From a virus (lineage: Duplodnaviria > Caudoviricetes), in the IMG/VR virus record IMGVR_UViG_3300002026_000256, positions 1 to 64,000 of that record: DNA of 64,000 nt. The stretch is one strand, 5' to 3'. Of this stretch, positions 3,062 to 42,898 are shown piece by piece (position 1 is the first letter of the stretch; each line of letters starts with the position of its first letter). The position numbers and the translations under genes were made by a program. A model generated the notes under the pieces. It was not told where the DNA came from and did not search any database. It saw only the letters and a list, made by a program, of their open reading frames with translations.

Positions 3062-4249
3062 ATGGTAACCGTTGCCGGAATCAAGATTAAAGCTAAAACT
3101 AAAAAAGAACCAACTATGAGCCGCCACGGCGCCCTTGGGGAGCCCGTGTGGGATGCTGATAGAGCAGTGTGTTTTGAAGATGCAGAATTTGATCACTATC
3201 TTCGTAAAAGTCTTAACTTTTACAACTACAACAATACACAAAAAGATTTGAAAAAGTATGTAGTGGCTTGGTTGAAAGAAAACACTAAATGGACTAAAGA
3301 GCAGCATGATGCGTATGCACTGACTACTCCGGAGCAAACACCAATGACATTGTGCAGCCTAGTTAAGGCTACGACAATGGGAATGCCAATGCGAGAAAAG
3401 CATAAGGCTAGCTTAATGGCAGAGCTTGAAAAAATTGTTGCTCCTATTGTTGAAGAACAACGTGCTGAACGTGCTAGAATCGCCGCTGCACTCAAAACAA
3501 CTAAGGGCCCGGTAGTGCATGCTCCTACTATTCAAGAGCGTCTTGCAGAGAAAACGGCAGAGGTAATTGGTGAGCTGGAAGGTCAAGTTGATAACGTATT
3601 CCATAATTTGCCAATTGAGTTTAAAATTTACGATTTTCTAACATCTCGTGGCGTAGCACAATCGCAAATTGGTAAAATTCGCGCAGTTTTTCAAAAGCAA
3701 ATTGACGAAATTACTGAGTTTGTCGCAGGCACTGACAAGCAACTTAACGAGGGATACTCCTTCCTTAAGAAAGCAGACTTGAAACGAATTGGTGACTTTT
3801 ATGTTAAGCTAATGGCTGATTTGGAAAGTTATACAGCCGTTAAGAAGGCAGTTAAGAAGGCAAAAGTTAAAAAACCAGTTGCTAAAGACAAGTTGGTAGC
3901 CAAAGTCAAATACATGAAGGAAGACAAGTCGCTTAAACTTGTTAGTATTAACCCAGTAAACATTGTTGGTGCTAAGGAACTGTGGTGTTTTGATACTAAG
4001 ACTCGCAAACTAATTCACTACGTTGCTGATCAGTATGCAATGGAATTGACAGTTAAAGGCACGACAATAATTGGATTTGATACTAGTGCAAGTGTGTGTA
4101 AAACACTGCGGAAGCCAGATGAGCAGCTCAAAGAGCTAATGAAAGCTGGTAAAGTGGCATTGCGCACATTTATGAAGGATATTAGGGCAGTAGAAGTTAG
4201 AGCGTCAGGCCGAATTAATGAGCATCAGTTGCTGCTTAAGGTAGGTTAG
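3062..4249 (+). CDS. Hypothetical phage protein (Lys-rich C-terminus)
   Basis: Long ORF; ATG at 3062 follows AAGGA, preferred to the track start at 3026. Confidence 0.7.
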   Translation: MVTVAGIKIKAKTKKEPTMSRHGALGEPVWDADRAVCFEDAEFDHYLRKSLNFYNYNNTQKDLKKYVVAWLKENTKWTKEQHDAYALTTPEQTPMTLCSLVKATTMGMPMREKHKASLMAELEKIVAPIVEEQRAERARIAAALKTTKGPVVHAPTIQERLAEKTAEVIGELEGQVDNVFHNLPIEFKIYDFLTSRGVAQSQIGKIRAVFQKQIDEITEFVAGTDKQLNEGYSFLKKADLKRIGDFYVKLMADLESYTAVKKAVKKAKVKKPVAKDKLVAKVKYMKEDKSLKLVSINPVNIVGAKELWCFDTKTRKLIHYVADQYAMELTVKGTTIIGFDTSASVCKTLRKPDEQLKELMKAGKVALRTFMKDIRAVEVRASGRINEHQLLLKVG

Positions 4250-31768: not shown

Positions 31769-32024
31769 TATGCCCAGGAAACGAGGTCCTGCTAGCGCAC
31801 TATAAACATGTTAGAAACGGGCGTCCTTGGGGATGAAGCATCTTGTGTGGTGTGAAAAAACCAGGAGTATTAAAGCATTTTGCTTGCTAGTAACTGAGTT
31901 GCAAACTTTGAATTTGTATCCACTAACGCAATGCAACAACTGAGTCAGCACCGGCGCTCTATGCGTCTTCGTGTTTTCCACTGTCAAAGTGCTTTAATAC
32001 ACACATTGGTTAACTCTAGTGTGT
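31769..32024 (+). ncRNA. Structured RNA ahead of the first tRNA
   Basis: ATGCCC/GGGCGT multistem; 16-bp stem 31867-31882/31985-32000 with a G.U pair; no ORF. Confidence 0.5.
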
Positions 32025-32034
32025 AACAAAATTT

Positions 32035-32110
32035 GGGCTGATAGTGATACTGGGGTACACGATGGTTTTGCAATCCATAGATAGGAGTTCGATCCTCCTT
32101 CGGTCCACCA
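32035..32110 (+). tRNA. tRNA-Ala(TGC)
   Basis: G3.U70, loop TTTGCAA, CCA. Confidence 0.85.
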
Positions 32111-37695: not shown

Positions 37696-37724
37696 TTGAC
37701 TTTTGGCAAGATCTGCGTTATAAT
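37696..37724 (+). promoter_or_regulatory. sigma70 promoter driving the hairpin-cassette array
   Basis: TTGACT-17-TATAAT. Confidence 0.8.
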
Positions 37725-37783
37725 ACTCACATAGCAGGAAACGATAGAGTTACTTGCAGCAAGTTCTTTAACATTTTATGAAA

Positions 37784-38483
37784 TCCTGAGACAATAGCGC
37801 GACGATATCAGGAAGTCATATTCAAGCATAATGCAACGGTGACCAAACCGAAAGTCCAACTAATCATACCATAGATATGTTGCGGTATGTGTGCTTGAAT
37901 ATGATTATCATAGTAAAGGGCAGTGCCTGAGACTGTCAGTGAATAGTTAGATTGGTGATATTAGGGCCTTATACGAGTGACGTATATCAGACTTGAGAGT
38001 CAACCAATAAACCTAATCATCTGCTCTTTACTATGATTATCCTGAGACAATAGCGCAACGATAGGAAACTCGAGTGAAGGGTCAACGACAATAGCAGCAC
38101 GATATCAGGAGATCATATTGAATATTTTTGTTGCAACCAATCTTCGCATATTGGGGTCGGTCAATGTTTTAGAAATATTCAATATGGTATCATCAAGTTT
38201 ATAATGTGTCATTCATGGGACTGGATATAAAAGGTCACACTGAGGCTCGGAATCTTAGGCATTATAAACACTAGCAGACAAAGGGTTTTGCAAGACCTGT
38301 GTTGGTATAGCTCTGTACTACGGAGTATCCTGTTCGATTCAGGGTTTGTTAGGATGATTATCATATTAAAATGTCTTTTAACCCGTTAGGTAGTGGAACG
38401 TGAACGAGAACCCTGATTAATCTAGATTAATCATTTCAGCCGACGAAACGAGCATCGCTACTACAAAGGCATTTTAATATGAT
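37784..38483 (+). ncRNA. Tandem array of seven hairpin-enclosed RNA cassettes
   Basis: Abutting units closed by 6-19-bp stems with G.U pairs and shared ends (ATCAT..ATGAT or TCCTGA..TCAGGA); no ORF of 60 aa or more in the track. Confidence 0.75.
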
Positions 38484-38489
38484 AAATAC

Positions 38490-38731
38490 GGGGGTATATT
38501 CTAGATACTGAGGAAGCCTCAGATGGTCTTGTGCATAATGTACATAATACATGATCATGCTTGTTGATGCGATTTCAACTGCCGCCCACCAACAAATGAT
38601 GCAGATACTTCGTCCCGAATTAATATAGGTTCCACGAAAGTTGTGAAAGTAAAACTAATGCTGCAACAGATAACTAGATCATGTTGTTATCAACTAAACA
38701 AACGGGAAGGCTGTGAAACAATCCGCCACCG
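38490..38731 (+). ncRNA. Structured RNA, possibly a degenerate or permuted tmRNA
   Basis: Starts GGGGGTA; internal ..TTTCAACTGCCGCCCACCA; later AATGCT-GCA ACA GAT AAC TAG; long-range pairing 38544-38556/38677-38690. Confidence 0.4.
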
Positions 38732-38742
38732 TTATTTAACGG

Positions 38743-38771
38743 TTGACTTTATCAAATAATTACGCTATAAT
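38743..38771 (+). promoter_or_regulatory. sigma70 promoter
   Basis: TTGACT-17-TATAAT. Confidence 0.8.
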
Positions 38772-42814: not shown

Positions 42815-42898
42815 GCGAGTGTGGAGGAACGGTAGACTCAGAAGACTTAAAAATCTTCCGCTTTATGCGTGTCGGTTCGAATCCGACCACTCGCACCA
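42815..42898 (+). tRNA. tRNA-Leu(TAA) with an 8-nt anticodon loop
   Basis: GAAGA-CTTAAAAA-TCTTC, variable arm, GGTTCGAATCC, CCA. Confidence 0.8.

Follow-up and report, generated by a model that had tools for sequence, protein, structure and literature searches.

What is encoded in the DNA that lies between and beside the tRNA genes of large phages? These phages spend kilobases on tRNA arrays, and the DNA around the tRNAs usually goes unannotated. We address this question for a 0.8-kb stretch in a 64-kb window—the whole stretch of DNA analyzed here—which forms the first part of a 74.5-kb IMG/VR record. The record is estimated to be ~21% complete, implying a genome of roughly 350 kb, and the source is a jumbo phage fragment from a microbial-mat metagenome. 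The window encodes a T4-type large terminase (54% identical to its counterpart in the Pseudomonas jumbo phage PA5oct) and a tail sheath, together with 28 tRNA genes (by ARAGORN and by Rfam), all on the plus strand between 28.3 and 43.1 kb. This tRNA set is near-complete. The array of interest starts 390 nt past the final tRNA in the main block, between a 77-aa frame upstream, which is kept at the DNA level in the relative L021, and a 156-aa gene downstream.

The initial annotation described seven equivalent hairpin-enclosed RNA cassettes behind one promoter. Our analysis supports the promoter-driven, noncoding polycistron and revises its content to three kinds of small RNA: four units closed by a long shared stalk (B, C, E, and G), two loop-motif units (A and D), and one tRNA-like RNA (F; Table 1). 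We favor, at a probability of about 0.6, a reading in which the stalk acts both as a processing and stabilizing frame and as a recombination frame, within a noncoding operon presumably transcribed by the host polymerase. Direct support comes from family membership, an RNA-level strand bias, register with tRNA ends, and cassette replacement in near-identical phages; cleavage, stabilization, and any payload function are putative roles read from sequence.

A Noncoding Operon beside the tRNA Genes

The promoter claimed for the locus is sigma70-like and is kept in four other phage contigs (L021, L075, L096, and L099), where promoter and leader together form a module ahead of arrays. The window's leader is 96.7% identical to that of L021 across 30 nt and is matched in L099 too; its hairpin carries a conserved 13–14-nt loop on a stem that shows covariation in L075, L096, and L003. 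Behind the leader, the unit borders first proposed proved right, with adjoining units 0–2 nt apart. Folded as a whole, the 771 nt reach z −7.3 against shuffles. Coding potential is lacking across the ~700 nt, as had been stated: The longest plus-strand stop-to-stop frame spans 52 codons, and stops are numerous in all three plus frames.

Table 1. Features of the small-RNA operon and of the gene that follows it, in window coordinates
Feature	Positions	Strand	Description	Basis
Promoter	37696–37724	+	Sigma70-like: TTGACT, 17-nt spacer, TATAAT	Consensus scan, 11/12 match
5′ leader	37728–37757	+	CACAUAGC start, then hairpin 37734–37757	Conserved in relatives
Unit A	37784–37813	+	6-bp hairpin, single GACAAUAGC-N3-ACGAUA loop motif	Fold and motif scan
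Unit B	37815–37905	+	Stalk-closed RNA	R1 40.8 bits, E 5.6e-7; fold z −5.5
Unit C	37907–38037	+	Stalk-closed RNA	R1 32.9 bits, E 3.4e-5; fold z −5.0
Unit D	38040–38110	+	6-bp closing stem, two GACAAUAGC-N3-ACGAUA copies flanking a central segment	
Unit E	38112–38188	+	Stalk-closed RNA	R1 34.5 bits, E 1.5e-5; fold z −4.0
Unit F	38189–38358	+	6-bp closure, 5′ hairpin domain, tRNA-like cloverleaf (~38271–38352)	
Unit G	38360–38483	+	Stalk-closed RNA	R1 46.2 bits, E 3.5e-8; fold z −5.6
NYN-like protein, 156 aa	38802–39272	+	Own sigma70-like promoter, 38743–38771	

The array could not be assigned to a named family, in agreement with the earlier claim. Scanned with Rfam 15 at the gathering threshold and at E ≤ 10, it returned tRNAs and noise only, and Rfam scans of the relatives' loci gave nothing convincing beyond tRNAs. 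Near- and distant-mode BLAST searches of the array, megablast and blastn among them, against 50,697 phage records, T4 included, produced no match. We found no description of these stems in the literature; a catalogue drawn from IMG/VR, with about 8,500 candidate structured RNAs (PMC10690425), may include members.

Several known systems were considered for the array and rejected. A ToxI-like type III antitoxin or CRISPR-type array is disfavored by direct repeats that are short and present in two copies only, by unrelated interiors, and by the lack of an Rfam match. A retron noncoding RNA lacks both an Rfam match and a flanking frame of reverse-transcriptase size, the clean frames being those of 77 and 156 aa. 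The stretch just 3′ of unit G (38486–38742) was considered as tmRNA-like and discarded, with no ARAGORN tmRNA call, Rfam match, or homologue; it is noncoding and folds no better than shuffles. Contigs assembled from the source samples break within it, at 38586 and 38695, and one runs on into a tRNA-Ala of the L003 type. The sequencing runs listed as holding the array region are DNA runs only, from microbial-mat and freshwater metagenomes, with no RNA run among them.

Two features elsewhere in the window are recorded here for completeness. At 42815–42898, ARAGORN reports a tRNA whose anticodon has four letters (taaa); this gene scores 48 bits against the Rfam tRNA model. The minus strand between 49400 and 61000 holds a series of frames alike in size, and the two that were scanned are paralogous radical SAM/SPASM-domain proteins.

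A Shared Stalk on the tRNA Strand

Long closing stems are confirmed for B, C, E, and G—at 17–24 bp, a length compatible with an RNase III substrate—and not for A, D, and F, each of which is closed by 6 bp. The shared AUCAU/AUGAU ends also hold: 8 of the 30 motif matches in the window fall within these 700 nt, against 16 expected by chance per 64-kb window. To describe the stalk independently of the window, we built an alignment of 22 units drawn from ten other contigs, none of it window sequence, and derived a covariance model (R1) from it. The outer 19 pairs are paired in 95% of alignment cells, vs. 35–46% when the 3′ partner is slid, a percentage that is partly built in because the units were chosen for long stems; compensatory changes in the conserved frame are still informative, and 14 of the 19 pairs vary on both sides with pairing preserved. 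The resulting consensus is a 19–20-bp AU-rich helix with invariant pairs at positions 3–5 (CAU/AUG) and 10–11 (AA/UU) and frequent U.G pairs at 15 and 17.

Applied to the 64-kb window, R1 gave strong matches at exactly G, B, E, and C (E 3.5e-8 to 3.4e-5), unchanged with filters off, and none at A, D, or F. On the minus strand, unit B scores 25.5 bits. A weak extra match at 31868–31999 (22.3 bits, 16–18-bp stem) sits 35 nt upstream of the tRNA-Ala at 32035. Across 89 other loci, matches fall in tRNA-array contigs, and in one 166-kb and one 102-kb contig every match lies inside the tRNA array; the whole T4 genome and PA5oct gave zero. Pattern scans of IMG/VR recovered further units, and every contig concerned carries a large tRNA array, with as many as 38 tRNAs in 13 kb. 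Scans with exact patterns also produced numerous chance matches. Those set aside were the ones in L005 and L006, which fall within a structural gene; a recurrent 92-nt match that falls inside a conserved gene; and one in L055 that belongs to a separate AT-rich palindrome family.

The stalk carries a strand signature. All 20 units outside the training set, the window's four among them, score higher under R1 on the tRNA strand. Over the first 20 stalk positions of 45 units read on that strand, G.U pairs outnumber A.C pairs 62 to 15 (binomial P = 6e-8), with the wobbles clustering at positions 15 and 17; an earlier, cruder count gave 69 vs. 27. Each long stem of the window contains at least one G.U, as the initial annotation had noted, and the four stems, counted over their first 20 positions, total 7 G.U and 0 A.C. 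This excess argues for selection on RNA made from the tRNA strand—the plus strand in the window, where the earlier claim of RNA-level selection is thereby supported—and against transposon ends or DNA cruciforms.

We consider it highly improbable that the units are DNA-level elements (recombination sites, or miniature transposons bounded by terminal inverted repeats) and not RNA genes; the strand signature speaks against this. Such elements would account for conserved inverted-repeat ends, for shifts in position, for multiple copies per locus (three near-identical units in L066), and perhaps for a GIY-YIG-like homing-endonuclease gene in the L021 array. They would not account for pairing that extends past the conserved ends through unit-specific compensatory changes or for units placed in exact register with tRNA CCA ends, and no target-site duplication or transposase was seen. 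A miniature transposon in particular was rejected on the one-strand wobble excess, the absent border duplication, and the unrelated interiors.

The register with tRNA ends is precise. In other contigs, a unit that follows a tRNA overlaps it by exactly 4 nt (NCCA) in 9/9 cases, such that the stalk's first four letters are that tRNA's discriminator plus CCA. The next tRNA often begins 0–7 nt past the stalk, and the next unit, too, often lies within a few nucleotides. This exact register ties the stalk to end formation in a precursor. Units with no preceding tRNA start with UCA rather than CCA. The window's four belong to this class: They stand in a separate operon, away from the tRNAs, and do not display the NCCA register seen elsewhere in the family, which counts against the favored reading for this particular array.

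Conservation of the stalk in sequence, through its invariant pairs, and not in structure alone could also point to a bound protein. In a Y-RNA-type ribonucleoprotein scaffold, the stalk would bind a protein of phage or host origin, which the variable module would tune or tether; a conserved closing stem with a variable or tRNA-like module is, by analogy, the layout of Y RNAs. We regard this scaffold as quite improbable here. The overlap of stalk and CCA points to processing over a stand-alone ribonucleoprotein, no Y_RNA or YrlA match appeared in Rfam even at E ≤ 10, and searches of the 74.5-kb record (~21% of the genome) for the TROVE and RtcB families found neither. A Y RNA or YrlA identity, for which TROVE would be the partner, was rejected on the missing Rfam match and the absence of TROVE from that record.

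Cassette Replacement and the Constant Members

The stalk-closed units share their frame and little else. As claimed, a uniform stem surrounds unrelated interiors in B, C, E, and G. The further claim that these interiors are themselves structured is not supported: Folded alone, those of B, C, E, and G give z −0.9, −1.6, +0.4, and −0.7, the level of shuffles. A search of related loci totaling about 0.87 Mb yielded no homologue for them, and their sense and antisense matches within the window are no more frequent than in shuffles. Across the family, interiors measure about 30–130 nt; of the 65 compared, 51 are singletons. Interiors that fold at shuffle level and lack homologues may have no function of their own.

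Loci of relatives were gathered around the closest of the many homologues of the 156-aa downstream gene. L003 (80% protein identity) has the downstream genes in common with the window and a different RNA region. There, a single stalk unit keeps the ends seen in the window around a different interior and is accompanied by a D-like unit and an A-like hairpin. Synteny is seen in L021 (71% identity), where the same small frame, promoter, and leader precede ~4 kb of geneless DNA with some ten units closed by 19–23-bp stems, mostly with an AUCAU-type (or ACCAU) start, plus a D unit. More distant loci (L007–L020), found via the NYN-like gene, have no array upstream; synteny is thus confined to close relatives.

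Side features of these loci include a 193-aa frame within the L021 RNA array (3315–3896) with a faint signal for a GIY-YIG (SegE-like) homing endonuclease; segB is likewise placed inside the T4 tRNA cluster. A 17-bp stem of other conserved sequence surrounds an odd tRNA-like gene in two unrelated contigs (L021:420–605 and L057:7138–7320); ARAGORN gives this gene a two-letter "anticodon," and the L021 copy scores 36.8 bits against the Rfam tRNA model.

Comparison of near-identical phages shows the interiors being exchanged, in line with the proposal that they are interchangeable. L049 and L078 are ~100% identical for hundreds of bases, with identity switching on and off at stalk arms, and one unit keeps both arms around a wholly different interior. 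Between L103 and L100, L102, and L104, arms and flanks are likewise ~100% identical and the interiors unrelated, on both sides of F. Movement between slots is seen as well: Two interiors recur in another slot of a related phage, one of them along with the entire stalk (98% identical), the other framed by a different outer stalk. L066 carries its three near-identical copies at one locus.

The source samples contain comparable variation. Here as in the relatives, the cassette variants are read from contigs, and assembly can create chimeras. At E, contigs show a joint from 38119 to 38181 with a different cassette in between, whose loose ends read an L003-type unit; others diverge at 38367 and 38370, where other cassettes occupy the G slot. 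Unit C has 37 extra bases at 37996 in three of four source-sample runs (X2, X3, and X4); at this position the window assembly represents either a deletion variant or another strain. Breakpoints inside the conserved stalk are as expected from a double crossover between stalk arms, and recombination within the arms would give rapid turnover of cassette content.

One alternative is that the helix alone is selected, as an RNase III-type cut site or a folding insulator, and that the interiors are passively swapped, drifting filler. Shuffle-level folding, the many singletons without homologues in related loci, the broad length range with its 37-nt indel in C, and conservation confined to the stalk sequence all agree with such spacers, and we take the possibility seriously without preferring it. 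Spacers would need neither an interior of 30–130 nt nor a separate promoter-driven array away from tRNAs. Some interior families, moreover, are kept with compensatory change across differing slots (L049 12060 and L078 10666), and replacement in otherwise identical genomes suggests turnover that outpaces drift.

A further possibility, the initial annotation's reading in full, is that each interior is a decoy or antitoxin mimic directed at host defense or at a translation-targeting enzyme, with the array serving as a counterdefense library. Cassette swaps in near-identical phages fit diversifying selection, the sealed tRNA-like RNA F shares the operon, the array adjoins the tRNA set, and the array of a relative, L021, contains a weak likeness to the L11-binding region of 23S rRNA. 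We nonetheless judge this account unlikely, given that the interiors of B, C, E, and G show no likeness to an Rfam family, to a tRNA loop, to an antitoxin RNA, or to a CRISPR repeat, that their complementarity is at chance level and their structure not significant, and that no defense or toxin partner was found.

The rRNA-like stretch itself (L021:4554–4619) lies beside a stalk unit and resembles the L11-binding, GTPase-associated region, with weak Rfam LSU scores of 12.9–18 bits and a 14-mer identical to what we take to be the E. coli 23S rRNA sequence. It is absent from the window and from the other loci.

Other members of the operon are stable across relatives. With the leader, D, and F conserved and the stalk units variable, the operon mixes constant and variable members. 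The loop motif of A and D is 18 nt long and occurs three times in the window. Its paired form is found in 8 tRNA-array contigs, on the tRNA strand in every case, with a variable center of 3–10 nt. Neither 6-bp closure is significant by energy against shuffles (z −1.3 for A and −1.1 for D), and we take both units as real because the closure covaries in relatives, with the D-type closing stem doing so in five of the eight contigs. The A-like hairpin of L003 (4580–4630) sits between two tRNAs, and in L096 and L021 the D unit is flanked by two stalk units.

Unit F has homologues in L096, L025, L066, and L099–L104 (E down to 5e-15). In their consensus, a 5′ hairpin precedes a cloverleaf, and compensatory change is seen at 18 of 35 pairs. 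Within the cloverleaf are a T arm, an acceptor-like stem of 9 bp, and an "anticodon" loop of 3 nt, and CCA is lacking; the 6-bp closure is not significant by energy and covaries in relatives. F was rejected as a tRNA proper: Neither ARAGORN nor the Rfam tRNA model (RF00005) calls it, the anticodon loop has 3 nt and not 7, and CCA is missing. BLAST searches of F in near and distant modes against the 50,697 phage records gave no match. Wherever both flanks are present, F lies between two stalk units.

A Proposed Frame for Processing and Recombination

The stalk as a frame for both processing and recombination accommodates these observations in a simple sequence of steps. The host polymerase presumably transcribes the operon from the strong sigma70-like promoter, with the conserved leader hairpin opening the transcript. 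Stalks would then mark the cutting points in a long precursor; possible cutters are an RNase III-like double-strand RNase, the enzymes that mature tRNA ends, and phage nucleases, of which the NYN-like neighbor would be one. After cleavage, the stalk may clamp the ends of the freed RNA against exonucleases. At the DNA level, the stalk arms would provide the homology at which recombination swaps or moves interiors. Against this reading stand the four interiors, with their shuffle-level folding and lack of homologues, and the lack of an RNase III gene in the 74.5-kb record, which covers ~21% of the genome; the host enzyme could act in its place.

The neighboring 156-aa protein is a candidate processing nuclease for the array, as judged from sequence motifs and a predicted fold. 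Its DGD and SxDxD motifs are invariant among 29 homologues, of which 15 give weak Pfam matches to NYN_YacP and 6 to NYN. The AlphaFold model (pLDDT 90) has its best full-length fold matches to the MARF1 NYN domain (TM 0.55–0.57), amid generic Rossmann-like ones, and a profile search of the PDB returned no sequence match. In the window, as in L003, L021, and L025, the gene directly follows the array, a link confined to close relatives.

Several known systems resemble parts of this arrangement. In bacterial rRNA operons, the sequences flanking an RNA pair into long leader–trailer stalks that are RNase III substrates. These are the nearest parallel in mechanism, being also polycistronic, about two helical turns long, and beside tRNAs. 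They differ in that the phage helix sequence is shared by many units and phages, encloses a variable interior of 30–130 nt, and starts on tRNA CCA; cleavage, for the phage stalk, is presumed. Nearest in kind are T4 species 1 and 2 (rnaC and rnaD), small non-tRNA RNAs within a phage tRNA cluster that are annotated as "small, stable RNA." T4 rnaC has a T-arm-like hairpin, as does unit F; neither T4 RNA folds with a long closing stalk, and we know of no cassette variation in either.

In layout, the nearest counterparts are YrlA-type Y RNAs, which have a conserved 5′/3′ closing stem and a variable or tRNA-like module and are often found near tRNA-related genes. The phage stalk is unrelated to them in sequence and overlaps tRNA 3′ ends. 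For the exchange of inserts, the comparison is with integron attC cassettes and with the "promoter-early stem-loop" modules by which T4-type phages shuffle genes; in these as here, imperfect inverted repeats frame exchangeable inserts in a promoter-driven array. Unlike integrons, the phage array has short noncoding RNA inserts, a G.U-biased frame, no integrase, and no attC core sequence.

Replacement of interiors in otherwise identical phages is unusual for noncoding RNA and suggests an arms race or built-in shuffling. A bolder reading, clearly less probable than the favored one, is that large phages run recombination-framed, hypervariable small-RNA cassettes. The stalk would then be at once an RNA handle, by which each RNA is cut out and stabilized, and a stretch of DNA homology for exchanging interiors between co-infecting relatives. 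The interiors, along with F and the loop-motif units, would act on host factors directed against translation, as sponges or decoys, and the system would parallel integron cassettes at the RNA level.

Part of the intergenic DNA of phage tRNA arrays is thus a small-RNA family with one conserved stem, detectable by covariance model. To our knowledge, the role of the RNAs that accompany phage tRNAs has stood as a question ever since T4 "species 1 and 2" were first reported. The locus offers testable objects—a 0.8-kb array, a defined stalk, a tRNA-like RNA, an 18-nt loop motif, and a NYN-like candidate nuclease—with which the processing of phage tRNA operons and the roles of their accompanying RNAs can be studied.
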